Source: an uncultured cyanobacterium (lineage in GTDB: Bacteria; Cyanobacteriota; Cyanobacteriia; Cyanobacteriales; CAWUOF01). From it: DNA of 64,000 nt. The number at the start of each line of letters is the position of its first letter. Within the stretch, counting starts at the first letter, position 1. A model generated the notes under the pieces. That model had not been told where the DNA came from. It ran no database searches and saw nothing but the letters and a program-made list of their open reading frames with translations. The position numbers and the translations under genes were made by a program. Shown piece by piece: positions 10,347 to 45,353 of the stretch. The stretch covers positions 2,624,001-2,688,000 of the forward strand of contig CAVUSO010000001.1 of assembly GCA_963744145.1 (NCBI GenBank), read 5' to 3'.

Positions 10347-11588
10347 ATGCTAACTGGACAAAAGCCCCGACCAGAGAAACTTGCTTCCGGTTGTCCTCAT
10401 CTAATCTCTATGCAACACGATCGAGCTTGGGTAGAAATTAATTTAGCCGCTTTAGCCCATAATGTACAGCAGTTAAAAAGTCTACTTTCACCACAAACAG
10501 ATTTAATGGCGGTAGTGAAGGCTGATGCTTATGGTCATGGAGCCATTACCGTAGCCCAAACCGCGTTAGCACATGGAGCGAGTTGGTTAGGGGTAGCGAC
10601 AATTCCTGAAGGAATTGAATTACGGATGGCCCGCATCAATGCCCCGATTTTGATTTTAGGTCCGACCTATACTCAGGAGCAAGTTCAAGCTTTGGTACAT
10701 TGGCAATTACAACCAACTTTGTATTGTCCGAAACAAGCTTTATTGTTTTCAGAAACCTTGGCAAATCTGGAGCGATCGCTCCAGGTTCATATTAAGTTAG
10801 ATACAGGAATGTCGAGACTGGGGATCAATTGGCAACAAGCGGGGGAATTTGTCAAATTAGTATCCCAATTACCCAATTTACAAATATTGAGTATATATTC
10901 TCATTTGGCGACGGCGGATAGTCAAGATCAAACCGTAATGTTTCAGCAACAACAAAGGTTTGAAACTTCAATTCAGGATATCTGGTCTAGTGTCCCAGAA
11001 TTAGTTGGGGGAAGGAATGATAGATATTCATCAAATCGGGTTTTTCCCCGTTTACATTTAGCCAATTCCGCAGCGATGCTCACTGATCCATCTTTACATT
11101 ACGATTTAGTTCGCGCTGGATTAGCTATTTATGGACTTTATCCGGCTACCCATTTACAAACCATAGTTAAATTAAAACCCGTGATGCAAGTCAAAGCAAG
11201 GGTAACTCAAGTCAAACCGATCGCGGCCCATACTGGGGTTAGTTATGGTCATAAATTTATCGCCGATCGGGAAATGTTGATCGCTGTAGTGGGAATTGGC
11301 TACGCTGATGGTGTACCTCGTAATCTTTCTGGTCAAATGGAAGTCCTAGTTCGAGGTGAAAAAGTCCCCCAAATTGGCGCAATTACTATGGATCAGATGA
11401 TGCTTGATGTCAGTAAGATTCCAGACTTAGAGCTTGGGGAGGTGGTGACCTTACTAGGCACCCAAGCTGGTAAAATTATTAGTGCCGATGACTGGGCTGC
11501 TACATTAGGGACAATTTCCTGGGAAATTCTCTGTGGGTTTAAACACCGACTGCCACGAGTTGCTGTGGATGTTAAGATTGAAAAGTAA
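10347..11588 (+). CDS. alr: Alanine racemase
   Basis: AVVKADAYGHG PLP-lysine motif, HIKLDTGMSRLG, GYADG, TMDQMM. Confidence 0.97.
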   Translation: MLTGQKPRPEKLASGCPHLISMQHDRAWVEINLAALAHNVQQLKSLLSPQTDLMAVVKADAYGHGAITVAQTALAHGASWLGVATIPEGIELRMARINAPILILGPTYTQEQVQALVHWQLQPTLYCPKQALLFSETLANLERSLQVHIKLDTGMSRLGINWQQAGEFVKLVSQLPNLQILSIYSHLATADSQDQTVMFQQQQRFETSIQDIWSSVPELVGGRNDRYSSNRVFPRLHLANSAAMLTDPSLHYDLVRAGLAIYGLYPATHLQTIVKLKPVMQVKARVTQVKPIAAHTGVSYGHKFIADREMLIAVVGIGYADGVPRNLSGQMEVLVRGEKVPQIGAITMDQMMLDVSKIPDLELGEVVTLLGTQAGKIISADDWAATLGTISWEILCGFKHRLPRVAVDVKIEK

Positions 11589-37963: not shown

Positions 37964-39193
37964 ATGTCTTTGTCTAATCCCAATCAACCTCGTCTCTTAT
38001 CTTTTGCTCTCGACGATTCTCCTGTTCTCGGTAGACGAGTTTCCTTGTCATTGACCAACGGATTTGGAGTATTGGTTGGTCGAAATGGAGCTGGAAAATC
38101 AGCTATTATCGAAGGGTTGGAAGCTATATCATTAAGTGCTACTGGTAGAACTAACCAGAGAAATCTACCAAAGGATAGCGATAGCATTCCCAAAAAATTA
38201 GATATCGAAATTTTGACACCGACTGGTCGTCAGTTACAATACCATTATGAGCTGATAACTACAACTATATCTGCTGACGATCCAGACATAGATGACTCCA
38301 CAAATGATAGATCAGAAGAGAGCCAATTTTCCTGGAATGACTACTGTCAATACATTGATGGACAGAAAGAAGTTCTATGGACTACTAACACTGGAGTAAC
38401 GACCTTCAATCAGGAAGATGATCCAATTATTCTTGGTCGTATTAGCTCACTTGTACTTGAACGATTGTATCTACCAAAAAACTTACAACAAATAAAGTCA
38501 ACTAATGAAATGCAGTGGGTTTACGCTGTTTTGAAAGGAATTCGTATTCTGGGAAAGGTTCCTGTTCGTAGAACTTCTAGACGTAGACCATCTCAGATCA
38601 GAGTATTCCATAAACGTACTATTATTGGTGTTGATGATATAATAGATAGACTGACTCATAAAATAATTCGTCTAGATCTGGAAGAACTTGATGAACTTAA
38701 AGCAGTTTGTCAACGAATTGGACTTGGAAACGAGATCACTATACAGAAGTTTGTTTTAAGTGGGACATCTGGAGAGAAACTTGAAAGTGAAGATGAAGAA
38801 CATTTCATTTCAGTATTATTAGATGGGGTCAATATCGGGTTGCTCTCTGACGGAACACTTCGGATTTTATCGATTCTGTTAGAAATAATTCCATCATCTT
38901 CTAGTACAACGACAATAATTGAAGAACCTGAAACACAAATTCATCCAGGTCTGCTCTCAAAATTACTAAATGAGATTGAGAGCTATACTTTTGGAGAAAA
39001 TTTAGTTATCTCTACTCATTCGCCACAAGTAGTCTCATGGACTAGTCCAGACAAAATTAATTTAGTTTATCGAAATCATGGACAGATATTTGTGCGGAAA
39101 CTAGGTAAAAACGAAATCCAAAGGGTTGTCGAATATCTTTCAGAAGATGGCAACTTAGGTGAATGGATTTACGGTGGTATAATCGATGAGTAA
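37964..39193 (+). CDS. ABC/AAA_21-type ATPase (AbiEii/OLD-type defence-associated)
   Basis: Walker A GRNGAGKS, signature LSDGT, Walker B IIEEPETQIHP, H-loop STHSP. Confidence 0.88.
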   Translation: MSLSNPNQPRLLSFALDDSPVLGRRVSLSLTNGFGVLVGRNGAGKSAIIEGLEAISLSATGRTNQRNLPKDSDSIPKKLDIEILTPTGRQLQYHYELITTTISADDPDIDDSTNDRSEESQFSWNDYCQYIDGQKEVLWTTNTGVTTFNQEDDPIILGRISSLVLERLYLPKNLQQIKSTNEMQWVYAVLKGIRILGKVPVRRTSRRRPSQIRVFHKRTIIGVDDIIDRLTHKIIRLDLEELDELKAVCQRIGLGNEITIQKFVLSGTSGEKLESEDEEHFISVLLDGVNIGLLSDGTLRILSILLEIIPSSSSTTTIIEEPETQIHPGLLSKLLNEIESYTFGENLVISTHSPQVVSWTSPDKINLVYRNHGQIFVRKLGKNEIQRVVEYLSEDGNLGEWIYGGIIDE

Positions 39194-39882: not shown

Positions 39883-40284
39883 ATGTGGACTTGGGAGTTA
39901 TACCAAAACATCAACGGAGAAGTCCCCAAAGAGCTACTGGCTTTCTTTATTAGAATGATCCCAGAGGATGAACTGCCAATTGCCCCACCGTCACCAGTGC
40001 TGACCCCAGCAGAAACTAAGAGGCTCCAAGTCAATCTCGGATACCTCTGTTCTAAAGGTTTAGCGTCTCTGATGAGCGACATTTTCGAGAAACTGGAGGA
40101 TGACCTGTACGAGTTACGCATGACCAAAAGCGAACATAACCCTAGATTTATCCTAACTCCTGTGACTCCCCAGCGATTTGTAGTGCTGCACGCTTTTATG
40201 AAGAAATACAACGGTGCTATTAAAGATAAAGATAAAGAACCAGCAAGACAAAGACTACGCGAACTTAAGACGCGAGAAAATTAA
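39883..40284 (+). CDS. RelE/HigB (Gp49-like) family toxin
   Basis: KLEDDLYELR…RFI…VVLHAFMKK…ARQRL; toxin-first arrangement with TAATG coupling to an HTH gene. Confidence 0.82.
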   Translation: MWTWELYQNINGEVPKELLAFFIRMIPEDELPIAPPSPVLTPAETKRLQVNLGYLCSKGLASLMSDIFEKLEDDLYELRMTKSEHNPRFILTPVTPQRFVVLHAFMKKYNGAIKDKDKEPARQRLRELKTREN

Positions 40285-41030
40285 TGAGCAAGCAGTACAA
40301 CTTTCAAAATTGGCTCCAAACCAAAATAAGTGATGACCCAGAGGTGGTTTTGGCTGAAAAATTAGAGTATCTGCGGCTTTACCTGACTGATACAATGCGG
40401 GAGTTACGGATTAAAGCGGGATTGACTCAAGCACAGTTAGCTGAAAAATTAGAAGTACAACAAGCAGCAGTATCTAAGCTGGAGTCAGCACTTAAAGATC
40501 ATGAGTTAGAGTCGGTCCTAAACTATTTGCATAAATTAGATGCAGATTTACTGGTAGCTGTCAAACAGGGAGATGAACTTTATCAAGTAAGTGACAATTC
40601 TGGGACGGTGCTAGTAGACATACCAATTGAAGTCCAAGAACTAGCAATCTCAAAAGGGATGAGTCTGCGCGATTATGTTCAGACAGCAATCAAGCACTTT
40701 TCACCCAAGAGTAGAACAGTTAGAGAATCAGTGACAGCTTTTTTGGAGAGTAATGACCCAGTTGCTGTACAGGTAAGGGAGAGATTGAAAGCTAAATCCT
40801 CAGAAGAAATTGCGATCGAGTTGGAAAAATGTCTGAGCATTTCCGATGAAGAAGACCGGATTTTCGCTGTTAAAAATGCTTTAGCTGGAGGGATTAGAAT
40901 TCGTGATAATAACCGCGATATTAGTGATAAAAATGATGAAATTGAATTGCTGGATTTAGCTGAGAGTCTGTTGGAAAAATTGACAGATATTTGGGATTAT
41001 ACTGTTGAGTATTTGGGGAATAGCGAGTAA
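40284..41030 (+). CDS. XRE-HTH (HigA-like) antitoxin with extra C-terminal module
   Basis: LRIKAGLTQAQLAEKLEVQQAAVSKLES HTH, RHH-like middle (ELAISKGMSLRDYV), then an ~85-aa module shared with 41476-42060. Confidence 0.82.
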   Translation: MSKQYNFQNWLQTKISDDPEVVLAEKLEYLRLYLTDTMRELRIKAGLTQAQLAEKLEVQQAAVSKLESALKDHELESVLNYLHKLDADLLVAVKQGDELYQVSDNSGTVLVDIPIEVQELAISKGMSLRDYVQTAIKHFSPKSRTVRESVTAFLESNDPVAVQVRERLKAKSSEEIAIELEKCLSISDEEDRIFAVKNALAGGIRIRDNNRDISDKNDEIELLDLAESLLEKLTDIWDYTVEYLGNSE

Positions 41031-41095
41031 TTTTGAATCTAGGAAACAATCCATAAAAACCTATAAATAAGCAGATTAGGACAGGTAAAATTAAA

Positions 41096-41479
41096 TTGAT
41101 TTTTGATGAAGTTAAGCGAATAGCTGTTGTGCAAGCAATTAGGAGAGTTAGAGAGCAAATTATTTGGAAACAGGGAAAAGCTAATCCTCATCTGGTCAAA
41201 AGAATTCGCTTAGGTCATTTGCCAGAAGATGCTACTATTGAACAATATAATGCCATCATCACTTTTGTAGTTAATAACAATGATTCCAATGTTTATGTAT
41301 ATGTTTTTGGAGAAATGATTTATCCCACAATAGTAGCTAATATGGAAAATAGAATTTGGCTAGTAATGATAGGATTAGATGGGGTTTTAGAAACTTCCTT
41401 TCCTCCCGATGACCCCGAAGGTTATCTAGCTAAATCAGAGTTTATTTATCTAGGTTCAGTTAAGGAGTTAGAAATATGA
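41096..41479 (+). CDS. Hypothetical protein, putative toxin of a second TA-like pair
   Basis: 127 aa; WKQGKA..HLVKRIRLGHLP…WLVMIGLDGVLETSFPPD; ATGA-coupled to the next gene. Confidence 0.6.
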   Translation: MIFDEVKRIAVVQAIRRVREQIIWKQGKANPHLVKRIRLGHLPEDATIEQYNAIITFVVNNNDSNVYVYVFGEMIYPTIVANMENRIWLVMIGLDGVLETSFPPDDPEGYLAKSEFIYLGSVKELEI

Positions 41480-42060
41480 ATCCTCTCTTAAAAAACTATT
41501 GTGTGAGTGTCGAGTTTCCTGATGTCAGTGGTGCGGAGCATTTAGAAATGCTGCTAATTCGCGATCGCTTAACAAAGATTGAGTCTCAATTCACTGATGA
41601 AGAAAAAAACTTACTGACAAAAGCAGATCGTCTATTAGTTGAGAAAGCCAATGATTTTTATCAGGAATTATCGCGCTTTGTCAATTTAGCAGAGAGACGA
41701 AAAGCTCAAATGATCCCTCCTCAACGTTGGTGGTGGTATTTAGATGCAATCCAGGTTGTAAAAGGATTTTTAGCAAGCGATTATCCAGCAGCCGTTTGGG
41801 TGCGAGAAAGTCATAGTTCTCTAGCTGTTAGAGTACAACAGCGACTAGAAAATGAGGGATTGCCTCAAATTGTTGCATACTTAGAACAATGCTTAAGTAT
41901 TACCGATGAATTTGACAGACTTGGTGCTGCACAAAAGATTTTGGCTGGGAACTTGCTTAATGCCGATAATAATCGCAATTTAAGTGATAATAATGATTCA
42001 ATTGAGTTACTAGATTTAGCTGAAAGCTTGTTAGAGAAATTAGAAAAATTTCATCAATAA
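41476..42060 (+). CDS. Hypothetical protein, putative antitoxin/immunity domain plus shared C-terminal module
   Basis: Helical N-domain ending PPQRWWWYLD, followed by a module paralogous to the C-terminus of 40284-41030. Confidence 0.65.
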   Translation: MNPLLKNYCVSVEFPDVSGAEHLEMLLIRDRLTKIESQFTDEEKNLLTKADRLLVEKANDFYQELSRFVNLAERRKAQMIPPQRWWWYLDAIQVVKGFLASDYPAAVWVRESHSSLAVRVQQRLENEGLPQIVAYLEQCLSITDEFDRLGAAQKILAGNLLNADNNRNLSDNNDSIELLDLAESLLEKLEKFHQ

Positions 42061-42074
42061 AAAATACACTTTAT

Positions 42075-45000
42075 ATGGGAAAGAGATCGGATTATACTAG
42101 CAAAAAAACACAGAATTTACAGTCCCAAGAAGTATATCGCAAGTTAATTAAAGCGTTACTAAACTGTTCTGATGAGCAAAGACCTAAGATTTTTGATGCT
42201 CACCTAGAAATAATTGATACTGGATTTATCCAAACAATGGAACAGGTGGCATTTGAAATGGCTAAAGAAGGTGATGAAAGTGCTTCGTACTTTTTGAGAA
42301 ACTTTGCCGCACAGTTAGCTGCACAAACTGTTTGGATGGAGCTATTAAAAGCTACCTATAACAATAGTAATCGACAGCAAGTAGTCTATTCTATTTTGGA
42401 TGCTCACCAAGGTAAACTTAATAATAGTTTTGCTGAAGTAATAGAAAATTGGGCAATAGATACCTGGCCTATAATCTCGTTAGAGCAGGCAGTTGTTGTT
42501 GCGGGAACAATGATCATTTTCAGTGACTTGATTATGAAGTTTCCTAGAGGTAGCAAATCTGGCAATTTGGAAATTGCACTCACTTGCTGTCAAAGTGCCT
42601 TGCAAATTCTTACTAAAGAGGCTTTCCCTGAACTTTGGGCTATGGCTCAACAAAATTTAGGCAATGCTTACTGTAATCGCATCCGTGGAGACAGAGCAGA
42701 AAATATAGAACAAGCAATTAACTGCCATCAAAATGCTTTGCTAGTTCACAATTATGAAGCTTTTGTCTATGACTGGGCTAGTATTAAAATTGATCTGGGA
42801 AATGCCTATTATTTTAGAGTACGAGGTAAGCAAGCAGAAAACATTGAATTAAGTATTCACTCCTTCAATGATGCCTTACAAGTTTTGAATCAAAAAAAAT
42901 CCCCAGAACTATGGGCTATGGCTCAAAATAATTTGGCAAATAGTTACGGCTATCGTATCTTTGGAGATGTTGCAGAAAATATCGAACAATCGATCATTTG
43001 CTATGAAAATGCTTTGCAGGTCTACACTTTTAAAGCTTTTCCTGAATTATGGGCTATGGCTCAACAAAATTTAGCAGGTGCTTATGGGAAACGTCGCCGA
43101 GGCAACAAAGCAGATAATCAGGAACAGGCAATTTCTTGTTATGAAAATGCTCTACAAGTTTACACCCGCGAAGTTTTTCCAGAAATGTGGGCTTTGGTAC
43201 ATCGTAACTTAGTATGTACTTACTGCGAACGTATCTATGGAATACGAGCAGAAAATATAGAACGAGCTATAATCCACTGTAAAAATTCCTTACAGGTTCG
43301 TACTCGTGAAGCTTTTCCCCAAGATTGGGCTATGGCTCAAAATAGTTTAGCGAATGCTTACCTAGCTCGTATTTATGGAGAACGAATTGCTAACCTAGAA
43401 CAAGCATTTGCCTGTTACAATTATGCCTTACAGATCTATATTCGTGAAACTTTTCCAAATGATTGGGCTTTAATCCAGAGTAATTTAACAGTTGTATATA
43501 AAGAATTACAACAAATTTCAAAAGCCATTCAATCCGCCCAATTAGCTTTAGAAATTTATACCCCTACTTCAAATCCTTTGGAGTGCTTCAGAACTGGATG
43601 CAATCTTGGTATAATTGCCTTCACCGATAAAAGATGGTCTGAAGCTATTATGGGATTTAGTGTAGCTATTGAAGCAGTCGAAACTAATCGTAGTTGGACA
43701 ACTTCTGAATCTCGCCGTCAACAAATTTTGGAAGAAGCTAATATTATCTATATGCGGATGGTGCAAGCTTGTATTAATGCTAGTCAACTAGATAAAGCAA
43801 TTGAAACTGTCGAACGTTCCCGGTCTAAAAGTCTTGTAGACTTAATGGCAAGTAATGACCTTTACTCTGGGGGCAATATACCTTCGGAAGTGCAAGAATT
43901 ATTGCGGCACTATGAAGACTTACAAAAGCAAATTGACTCTGAACTTTTTTCCAATAATTCTGATATTAACCGAGAATTTAGGGAAGTAGAAAGTAGCATT
44001 CAGAAACGTGCTGCTTTTCAAGCTTACAATGAAGCGATCGCCACCCTAGAGATCCAAAAAACTAAAGTCTTTGAACAAATCAGAAAATTAGACCCTGTGC
44101 TTGCAGGTGGAATTCAAGTTAGCGTTATCAGATTTGACCAGATGCAGAGACTCATTGATCAACCAAATACTGCTATTCTGAGTTTCTATACCACTACCGA
44201 AAACACTTATATCTTTGTTCTACGGCAAAATCAGTCAACTCCCTATCTGCATACTTGTATAGGACAAGGAATAGAAACATTACAAAATAAGATTTCTCTC
44301 AATTGGTCGCAGCCATATCTTAAAGATAAAAGCACTTGGCAGTCTCAGCTAAATGATTTCTTGGCTGAACTAGCTCAACGTCTGCAAATCGATAACCTGA
44401 TTGACCACTATCTCCAAGGTATTGAAGAACTAATTTTAGTACCTCATCTTTTATTGCACCAAATTCCTCTTGCAGCTTTACCGATTCAGGATACTGAACA
44501 TTCCTATCTGGGTGACAAATTCCAAATTCGCTATGTCCCCAGTTGCCAAGTTCTAGAATTCTGTCAAGAACGAGAACACCAACACCCAATTGGAGATTCT
44601 CTTCAGTATGGTGTCATTGCAAATGCTACGGAAGACCTGCCCTGTGCCAGTTTTGAAGCGGAGAAAATTGCTAATCTATTCAACATCCCTAAAAGCCAAA
44701 TTTTGCAAGGTCGCAGTGAAGCCACAAAAAATAACTATCGTCAGTTAGCTTCAAAAGTTCAGGTGCTACACTCCTGTCACCATGCCGAATCTCGTCTTGA
44801 TAAACCATTAGAATCAATACTAAAACTGGCAGATGAGACTCTGACACTGGGAGAACTGCTGACTCCAGGTTGGCGATTCCCGAACCTATCAGATGTATGT
44901 CTTTCCTGCTGTGAAACAGGTTTGGGAATACCCAAATCTCTATCCGATGAAATTATGACGCTCTCAACAGGTTTTTTATGTGCTGGGGCAAGAAGTGTTA

Positions 45001-45353
45001 TCAGTACCCTATGGTCAGTAGATGACTTGGCTACAGCCCTGTTTTTTATTTTCTACTATCAGAATCGACAACAAGGTAAAACCAGACCACAAGCTTTGCA
45101 GTATGCACAGAAGGAATTGCGATCGCTTACCCAAGAATATATCAACAAACTATATTTAGAAATAAAAGAAAAGTGTCAAAATGCTAGAAAAAACCGCAAT
45201 CAATATCCAGATGACTATTTAAAATGGAATACTGAATATCGCAAGTATGCCGCAGTGAGACTTGCCATTAACAAAGTGCTTGAAACTCGCGACAATAAAC
45301 CTTTCTCACATCCTAGATACTGGGCAGCATTCACCTGTTCCGGTTTGCGCTAA
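42075..45353 (+). CDS. TPR-repeat CHAT-domain (caspase/separase-like) protease
   Basis: ~40-aa repeats FPELWAMAQxNL..AY..RI.G..AENIEQAI; CHAT motifs LILVPHLLLHQIPL, VLHSCHH (His), LSCCETG (Cys), AGARSVISTLWSVDD, HPRYWAAF. Confidence 0.93.
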   Translation: MGKRSDYTSKKTQNLQSQEVYRKLIKALLNCSDEQRPKIFDAHLEIIDTGFIQTMEQVAFEMAKEGDESASYFLRNFAAQLAAQTVWMELLKATYNNSNRQQVVYSILDAHQGKLNNSFAEVIENWAIDTWPIISLEQAVVVAGTMIIFSDLIMKFPRGSKSGNLEIALTCCQSALQILTKEAFPELWAMAQQNLGNAYCNRIRGDRAENIEQAINCHQNALLVHNYEAFVYDWASIKIDLGNAYYFRVRGKQAENIELSIHSFNDALQVLNQKKSPELWAMAQNNLANSYGYRIFGDVAENIEQSIICYENALQVYTFKAFPELWAMAQQNLAGAYGKRRRGNKADNQEQAISCYENALQVYTREVFPEMWALVHRNLVCTYCERIYGIRAENIERAIIHCKNSLQVRTREAFPQDWAMAQNSLANAYLARIYGERIANLEQAFACYNYALQIYIRETFPNDWALIQSNLTVVYKELQQISKAIQSAQLALEIYTPTSNPLECFRTGCNLGIIAFTDKRWSEAIMGFSVAIEAVETNRSWTTSESRRQQILEEANIIYMRMVQACINASQLDKAIETVERSRSKSLVDLMASNDLYSGGNIPSEVQELLRHYEDLQKQIDSELFSNNSDINREFREVESSIQKRAAFQAYNEAIATLEIQKTKVFEQIRKLDPVLAGGIQVSVIRFDQMQRLIDQPNTAILSFYTTTENTYIFVLRQNQSTPYLHTCIGQGIETLQNKISLNWSQPYLKDKSTWQSQLNDFLAELAQRLQIDNLIDHYLQGIEELILVPHLLLHQIPLAALPIQDTEHSYLGDKFQIRYVPSCQVLEFCQEREHQHPIGDSLQYGVIANATEDLPCASFEAEKIANLFNIPKSQILQGRSEATKNNYRQLASKVQVLHSCHHAESRLDKPLESILKLADETLTLGELLTPGWRFPNLSDVCLSCCETGLGIPKSLSDEIMTLSTGFLCAGARSVISTLWSVDDLATALFFIFYYQNRQQGKTRPQALQYAQKELRSLTQEYINKLYLEIKEKCQNARKNRNQYPDDYLKWNTEYRKYAAVRLAINKVLETRDNKPFSHPRYWAAFTCSGLR

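Follow-up and report, generated by a model that had tools for sequence, protein, structure and literature searches.

A portable five-helix module recurs on inhibitor-type proteins beside TPR-CHAT proteases in cyanobacteria and probably marks protease clients

The 64,000-nucleotide stretch of DNA analyzed here (the window; uncultured cyanobacterium, GenBank assembly GCA_963744145.1, contig CAVUSO010000001.1, positions 2,624,001 to 2,688,000 of the forward strand) contains an operon-like array of five genes on one strand. In order, these encode (i) a Gp49/HigB-like toxin candidate, (ii) an HTH antitoxin candidate with a C-terminal helical module, (iii) the protein p127, (iv) the protein p194, in which an N-domain (p194N) is followed by a second copy of the module, and (v) a TPR-CHAT protease. 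The successive spacings are -1 (an ATGA overlap), 65, -4, and 14 nt, and the module carriers are genes 2 and 4. The module recurs across cyanobacteria on inhibitor-type proteins encoded beside TPR-CHAT proteases and probably marks the clients of these proteases.

The first cassette of the array opens with the 133-aa toxin candidate (39883..40284, +), which matches Pfam PF05973 (Gp49) with an E value of 2.4e-8 and 34.4 bits against a cut-off of 23.9. The overlapping second gene encodes the 248-aa HTH-XRE (HigA/HipB-like) antitoxin candidate (40284..41030, +; HTH_3 31.3 bits, cut-off 23). By gene content and order, with both families above their cut-offs, the two form a type II pair of the HigB(Gp49)/HigA kind, and toxin-before-antitoxin order is the rule for PF_gp49 in a table of PMC11980606. 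Structurally, the N-domain of this 248-aa candidate is similar to antitoxins of the XRE, HipB, and HigA kinds (2o38, Z 9.0, root-mean-square deviation 3.5 over 80 residues) and matches HigA2 (7ewc) in Foldseek with E 0.012; the full 248-aa model finds structure matches through its HTH domain only. The second cassette consists of p127 (127 aa; 41096..41479, +), an open reading frame (ORF) that pairs with p194N homologues elsewhere and overlaps the next gene by 4 nt, and p194 (194 aa; 41476..42060, +), whose ~92-aa N-domain is elsewhere a free-standing protein of ~110 aa. Neither p127 nor p194 has a Pfam, NCBIfam, or PADLOC match above noise; the Atlas label of p127, Colicin D at 0.79, is a lead only. 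The first genes of both cassettes would be toxins, presumably neutralized by the products of the second genes.

The two copies of the module occupy 40731..41027 (+), as delimited by AlphaFold2 models and the module profile, and 41758..42057 (+), as delimited by BLASTP and alignment. A first-pass annotation made from the sequence had described a duplicated module of ~85 aa on unrelated proteins. The duplication stands: the peptides quoted for the two copies are exact translations of 40731-40982 and 41800-42042, and one carrier is an HTH_3/XRE protein while the other has no family match. The length was underestimated, as the module is really ~100 aa, running to ~41027 in copy 1 and starting at 41758 in copy 2. 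When the whole 248-aa and 194-aa proteins are compared by BLASTP, a single alignment is returned (residues 150-233 versus 95-189), with 49 of 95 positions identical (52%), E 2e-24, and one 11-residue gap. The final helix, IELLDLAESLLEKL, is identical in all 14 residues despite synonymous differences in 9 of its 14 codons (9/42 nt). Extending the comparison to the last 29 codons gives 22 identical residues, 10 of them encoded by differing codons. Because identical residues are encoded with differing synonymous codons, the similarity is old and held by selection, which argues against recent copying or gene conversion and agrees with the purifying selection proposed initially. The gap corresponds to an 11-residue insertion in copy 2 that repeats the first-helix motif xAVxVRE (AAVWVRE / LAVRVQQ); this internal repeat, also noticed at first pass, is kept in orthologues.

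In AlphaFold2 models, the module folds into five helices with a low-confidence loop before the last. The model of the 248-aa protein (110-row alignment) has a mean predicted local distance difference test score (pLDDT) of 60, with the module at 82-86 and residues 204-214 below 50; the helices span residues 146-154, 159-167, 173-184, 189-201, and 215-247, and the loop spans 204-214. The module modeled alone (67-row alignment; pLDDT 78.3, predicted template modeling score 0.64) has helices at 2-11, 15-23, 29-40, 45-58, and 72-101, and its loop, 61-70, is again below 50. In both models, this is the sole low-confidence stretch in a module that otherwise scores 82-89, in agreement with the interhelical loop placed there by the first-pass annotation, and the low pLDDT suggests that it is flexible and exposed. 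The loop includes Arg211 (module residue 67; codon CGC, 40914..40916, +), which is invariant in HTH-family alignments and is the candidate P1 residue; the loop arginine of copy 2 is Arg167 (codon 41974-41976, +). A Foldseek search with the module-only model gave no match at E <= 0.001. The best VIA-align matches are 9mn4 (Z 6.3), the NAB2 N-domain (6.1), 1u84 (6.1), and a helical region of separase (6.0); scores of 6.3 or lower most likely reflect generic helical similarity, being below the meaningful level for helical proteins, and none points to a convincing solved structure. A death fold would be expected to have six helices, the model has five, and no death-fold entry appears among the 50 matches listed.

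The HTH-module fusion is a widespread cyanobacterial family, a fact overlooked at first pass. It has 265 homologues, those listed being 189-321 aa long and 62-84% identical, in Nostoc, Desmonostoc, Scytonema, Calothrix, Okeania, Trichocoleus, and other hosts. At 80 loci encoding relatives of the HTH-module protein, searched by phmmer with the proteins of the window, a Gp49-like gene lies directly upstream of the HTH gene in every case (80/80), and the HTH protein carries the module in 78. Two Floridaenema loci (L015, L016) repeat the five-gene layout of the window. At 29 of the 80 loci there is a second module-bearing ORF, which belongs to the p194 type in 2 cases and to a small “EDVDGDWLE” type in 27. 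In 21 of these 27, the small module gene directly follows a conserved ORF of ~231 aa (190-243; L054 7841-8536, L027 5169-5882, and 19 others) with no family assignment. A Pfam scan of this partner and of the small module proteins gave nothing above noise; the ~231-aa ORF is a candidate third type of effector.

The p194 protein itself is rarer, with 11 full-length orthologue clusters in Microcoleus and Floridaenema. Among the 120 matches listed for it, 12 are full-length forms, including its own, and about a hundred consist of the N-domain only (106-133 aa); stand-alone p194N homologues also occur in Chloroflexi (Candidatus Amarolinea). Since p194N homologues otherwise stand alone, the module is a later addition to them. 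Adjacent p127/p194N pairs are found at 8 of 11 loci of other genomes, 7 without the module and 1 (L096) with it. The module is therefore dispensable for the pair itself, stand-alone p194N proteins of ~110 aa being common.

In the window's own genome (7.7 Mb), there are seven full copies of the module, and the five outside the window all lie in Pfam DUF1822 proteins. At all four own-genome DUF1822 loci inspected, a sigma-like gene (~230-276 aa) is followed by the DUF1822 gene and then by a CHAT gene. Relatives of the 230-aa DUF1822 partner carry the Atlas label “sigma-70 family” at 0.98, a lead only. A fifth DUF1822 locus (L014) has the same first two genes, and its nearest CHAT match lies 4.4 kb downstream in an apparently fragmented gene. 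This locus and L013 (4007-5293) are near-identical sigma/DUF1822 (453 aa)/small-CHAT loci of the same genome: L013 has an intact 400-aa CHAT protein with a zinc ribbon and a transposase-like ORF nearby, and in L014, the CHAT gene is apparently fragmented. Between a tandem pair of TPR-CHAT genes (L011, about 11262-11324; G000:C1:4757261-4757323), a further trace of the module survives as 21 residues of its last helix and looks like a decayed cassette before the second protease.

As judged from gene order, every module carrier examined is thus the second gene of a two-gene cassette, and the first-pass annotation had overlooked that both carriers in the window are second genes of toxin-antitoxin-like pairs. 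This position could mean that the module neutralizes the toxin, contacting whatever protein the upstream gene encodes, much as many type II antitoxins bind their toxins through C-terminal regions. Such a role is very improbable because the upstream partners (Gp49-like, p127, ~231-aa, and sigma-like) are mutually unrelated while the module is conserved. Moreover, p127 pairs with module-less p194N at seven loci, and one module subtype occurs on different N-domains: the p194-subtype module, with its 11-aa duplication, is also found on the “EDVDGDWLE” domain.

A profile built from six modules places the module within DUF1822, an affiliation that the first-pass annotation had missed. In a set of 5.8 billion proteins, this profile matched 424, and PF08852 is present on 118 of the 120 listed; an exhaustive search gave 139 clusters at 50% identity. 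The module is homologous to the segment that follows the N-terminal domain in a sub-branch of DUF1822. Own-genome module carriers (L010-L013) match PF08852 at 113-233 bits, and in L010, the Pfam match (residues 12-216, model positions 2-209) reaches into the module-aligned region. Neither carrier in the window matches PF08852 (gathering score 25 bits) even at E <= 0.1. DUF1822 is present in 50 of 151 sampled cyanobacterial genomes. Among the 30 best-scoring DUF1822 loci from other genomes, a CHAT-like ORF was found in 16 and a sigma-like ORF in 11 by phmmer with 1.5-kb flanks, an insensitive test.

Across these proteins, the module is carried by at least five unrelated N-terminal domains and lies mostly at the extreme C-terminus of its carriers. 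The architectures include (i) DUF1822-N plus module, with or without a further C-terminal domain, (ii) HTH-XRE plus module, (iii) a ~60-aa “EDVDGDWLE” domain plus module (150-175 aa in total, the “small” family), (iv) the p194 N-domain plus module, (v) an N-domain of no named family plus module (P0386), (vi) TPR plus module (P0451), (vii) GAF plus DUF1822 (P0479), and (viii) tandem modules (P0015, P0363). In one 873-aa metagenomic DUF1822 protein (P0394), a ~600-aa subtilisin (S8)-like peptidase region is inserted inside the module loop, with the last helix remaining at the extreme C-terminus.

The last gene of the array encodes a 1092-aa TPR-CHAT protease (42075..45353, +) that comprises an N-terminal helical domain of ~180 aa, TPRs (TPR_10/TPR_12), and the CHAT domain (PF12770, E 2.1e-44, 152.5 bits). 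The CHAT protease that the first-pass annotation had set beside the module genes begins 14 nt downstream of p194, and its His/Cys motifs, HSCHHA (44769-44786) and LSCCET (44901-44918), are intact. In 38 homologues, the His residues of these motifs are invariant and the Cys residues nearly so. The protein looks like an active clan CD, caspase-fold CHAT protease with catalytic His and Cys, and the two motifs probably supply the catalytic dyad, by analogy to, rather than alignment with, the Csx29 mutants C615A/H658A. The nearest NCBIfam family is Csx29 (NF041237; E 4.5e-23, 82 bits versus a cut-off of 300).

Linkage of the module to such proteases is tight. Among 70 HTH-module loci with at least 4 kb of downstream sequence, 62 have a same-strand CHAT-domain ORF downstream, 1 has a CHAT N-terminal match only, and 7 have none; across the 65 loci with any same-strand CHAT match, the gap is 3-2484 nt. 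In the own genome, all seven full copies of the module lie 0.9-4.4 kb upstream of a same-strand CHAT match, compared with about 2.7% of positions expected to qualify by chance (a rough estimate from the 84 CHAT-domain matches, several with internal stops, in 7.7 Mb). The proteases concerned form one subfamily: five TPR-CHATs adjoining module genes share the N-terminal ~180-aa domain of the window protease, a domain that matches only about nine proteins in the own genome.

Where the protease is missing, the module tends to be missing as well. Both module-less HTH proteins among the 80 loci (L055, L085), whose N-parts are 83-85% identical to that of the window protein, are encoded at loci without CHAT. 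There (L055 7001-9218, L085 7001-8873), the HTH protein is truncated where the module would begin, and methyltransferase/restriction-modification-like genes on the other strand stand in place of CHAT. In L055, the sequence past the truncation still resembles the start of the module, and the p194N homologue also lacks it. Likewise, the seven module-less p127/p194N pairs have no CHAT match in flanks of about 1.1-1.5 kb, and downstream of the one module-bearing pair (L096) lies a CHAT N-terminal match.

These distributions bear on a possible CHAT-independent role, in which the module is an all-purpose oligomerization or stabilizing tail on small regulators and its proximity to CHAT stems from crowded defense islands. 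Such a role would accommodate the seven of 70 loci that keep the module without an adjacent CHAT, as well as the extreme CHAT-richness of the genome and the lack of a fold or family match that assigns a function. It would leave unexplained the placement of all seven own-genome copies, the retention of the arrangement in 62 of 70 loci across many genera, the joint absence of module and CHAT (L055, L085, and p194N loci without a module), and the restriction of module-linked CHATs to one subfamily with a common N-terminal domain, and it is considered improbable.

Homotypic pairing, as between effector-associated adaptor domains (EADs), was considered and rejected: the module is not found on the protease, as comparing the module profile with 38 TPR-CHAT proteins by hhalign returned a probability of 0.12% over 2 columns. 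Alignment-based prediction of a complex between an 876-aa TPR-CHAT protein (L080) and its cognate HTH module (residues 140-236) scored 0.01, which carries no weight either way. Co-variation of the two modules within a locus was set aside as evidence because it is confounded by relatedness.

Conservation within the module was profiled over 141 sequences, the loop position being readable in 122 cluster representatives (50% identity). The best-conserved positions are in the hydrophobic core and the last helix (L86 A87 E88 L90 K93 L94 W98), the first six of these last-helix residues being about 90% or more conserved. Within the linker, the best-conserved position is 72, with R in 73 and K in 13 of the 122 representatives (basic in 70%), followed by E (47), D (24), G (19), or S (11). 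In short forms, it lies a fixed eleven positions past the conserved Leu 61 of helix 4. The loop arginine is present in the HTH family in 28/28 (alignment A3), 38/38 (A6), and 78 of 79 informative rows, in the p194 family in 3/3, and in the small family in 22/27. In the 79 HTH-family rows, the arginine is preceded by Asn in 67 and followed by Gly in 55 or Asp in 16. On these family counts, NNR is the form that a broader (N)R(G/D/E) motif takes in this clade. The conserved NNR loop described at first pass therefore holds for the arginine and, in most HTH-family members, for the preceding Asn, while NNR itself is clade-specific; its proposed conservation of the arginine holds in the HTH family and fails for part of the small family.

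The main rival to cleavage is a docking or regulatory role, whereby the module tethers toxin-antitoxin or sigma/anti-sigma complexes to the TPR-CHAT protein or acts on the protease as a pseudosubstrate inhibitor, in the manner of securin, or as a sensor input, and the arginine is a contact residue. Synteny, portability, and joint absence fit docking as well as they fit cleavage. The best-conserved part of the module is its last helix and not the loop, some modules have no arginine, and the extreme C-terminal location is typical of TPR ligands. Docking alone would not account so readily for an arginine that is invariant in HTH-family alignments while its neighbors vary and that sits in a flexible loop at a fixed spacing from the helix-4 Leu, a pattern resembling that of a protease site, nor for the conservation next door of a protease that looks catalytically intact. 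It is therefore regarded as rather unlikely, with a CHAT-independent role less likely still.

The reading favored here, with confidence that is about even, is that the module, a portable five-helix domain of ~100 residues, serves to couple inhibitors to the adjacent TPR-CHAT protease, probably by being cut in its loop. A coupling tag fits best because a shared tail is found on second genes, is dispensable for the pairs, lies next to one TPR-CHAT subfamily, and is missing without the protease; a docked, loop-cut substrate fits because a flexible loop with a near-invariant arginine precedes a conserved acidic helix. Under this scheme, the conserved acidic amphipathic last helix and the four-helix body would dock the inhibitor on the protease, and the flexible loop would place the conserved (N)R-(G/D/E) motif at the active site of the CHAT domain. 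Once activated by a signal, the protease would cut the loop at the candidate P1 arginine, and the cut would inactivate or release the inhibitor and free its partner, be it the HigB-like mRNase, p127, or, in DUF1822 cassettes, the sigma-like protein. One protease could in this way gate several outputs. A bolder and more doubtful extension is that cyanobacterial TPR-CHATs might be hubs that fire unrelated outputs, namely a HigB-like mRNase, further toxins, and a sigma factor, at once by cutting after a conserved Arg in a shared portable cassette grafted onto inhibitors.

Several observations weigh against coupling by cleavage. Physical binding and cleavage are both proposals from sequence context. 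The residue at the loop-Arg position is non-basic in 36 of 122 representatives, and 5 of 27 small-family modules have no arginine there. The P1 preference of CHAT proteases does not appear to be fixed: by analogy with Csx29, which cuts after Met, specificity for Arg cannot be assumed. At seven of the 70 loci, no CHAT adjoins the Gp49/HTH-module pair, so that the module-bearing pair may persist alone or use a CHAT encoded elsewhere. Conversely, most of the 84 CHAT matches in the own genome have no module-bearing neighbor. A recognizable module is confined to a sub-branch of DUF1822, and the module hidden Markov model matches none of the 30 DUF1822 loci that score highest in other genomes. Finally, modules of the same locus are only modestly more alike than modules of different loci (tail 0.657 within versus 0.595 across loci), with striking similarity only in Okeania (0.95, 0.88) and the clade of the window.

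In L079, L088, L053, L047, and L086 (Nostoc, Stigonema), the pair is kept and the TPR-CHAT gene is gone from between the genes that flank it in L080, which looks like clean loss of the protease with retention of the tag. Among the seven loci without a CHAT match, L029 has a TPR protein that begins further downstream and is cut off by the end of the locus, and L060 has a TPR remnant.

Antitoxins of toxin-antitoxin-chaperone (TAC) systems bear a C-terminal “chaperone addiction” extension. Similar to the first cassette of the window, these systems combine a HigB/Gp49-type toxin with an HTH antitoxin in which an extra C-terminal segment ties the pair to the third gene of the operon. In the window, the additional gene encodes a protease instead of a chaperone, and the extension is a folded ~100-aa domain that also occurs on proteins outside toxin-antitoxin pairs. 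The dependence of a HigA-type antitoxin on a third, dedicated SecB-like partner is described in PMC9098466. The closest precedent for the DUF1822 cassettes is the set of ECF-sigma/DUF1822/EACC2-caspase neighborhoods predicted by Kaur, Iyer, Burroughs, and Aravind (eLife 2021, PMC8195603), in which DUF1822 keeps company with a sigma factor and a caspase-fold protease, as in the triads of the own genome. In the sections of that paper available here, DUF1822 is called a “TPR protein”, and the module, its loop, and its spread to HTH antitoxins and small proteins are not singled out; the protease there is an EACC2-caspase, whereas that of the window is a TPR-CHAT with its own N-terminal domain.

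Craspase (type III-E) offers the nearest parallel for the protease. As outlined in bioRxiv 10.1101/2022.08.17.504292, the TPR-CHAT protein Csx29 cleaves Csx30 once, after Met in a beta-hairpin (M427|K428), and Csx30 binds Csx31 and the sigma factor RpoE. Common to both systems would be a TPR-CHAT encoded beside an inhibitor-like protein whose single cut alters a partner, a feature proposed for the window from genes alone. They differ in that no Cas7-11 or crRNA activator was seen at the window locus, where no CRISPR scan was made, and in that the window protease scores below the Csx29 equivalog cut-off. The cut in Csx30 follows Met in a beta-hairpin as opposed to the proposed Arg in the loop of a helical domain, and the window locus has one portable tag common to several unrelated candidate substrates. 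The same logic, in which a protease cleaves an inhibitor and thereby releases an effector or sigma factor, underlies CalpL-CalpT-CalpS. This system consists of a CRISPR-Lon protease, an anti-sigma factor, and a sigma factor, has a cyclic-oligoadenylate trigger, and thus differs in its Lon-type protease, its trigger, and the lack of a shared portable tag. A protease-gated inhibitor/effector switch is therefore already known, and the new element would be a portable, shared tag that lets one protease control several cassettes. No description of a CHAT-linked tag on antitoxins was found among the titles and abstracts listed in searches of freely accessible literature.

How type II antitoxins are removed so that their toxins become free is a long-running question, most often answered by invoking bulk degradation by Lon or Clp. 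If the proposed coupling is true, an operon-encoded caspase-like protease that recognizes a transferable antitoxin tag would provide a specific route of activation and would tie toxin-antitoxin pairs, at the level of mechanism, to the protease-gated immune switches of Craspase and CalpL. It would also assign a function to part of DUF1822 and, for some of the CHAT proteases that abound in filamentous cyanobacteria, nominate the first candidate substrates. The arrangement would represent a natural modular system for tagging protease substrates, with a caspase-like route to toxin-antitoxin activation, and protein engineering could draw on a short, portable tag that has a defined cut site.

Around the array, at 34-50 kb of the window, none of the ORFs read is Cas-like (no CRISPR scan was made); they encode ArgS, a kinase-like protein, RuvX, an AAA ATPase, a PhzF-like protein, an exonuclease, and MurF. 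The ATPase (409 aa; 37964-39193, +) is an AAA_21/AAA_15 protein with PADLOC matches to models of the AriA, HEC-01A, and GajA types. It was considered as a component of the system and rejected because a homologue is present in none of the 80 related loci. It stands by itself ahead of the CHAT array and probably represents a defense-type gene in its own right.

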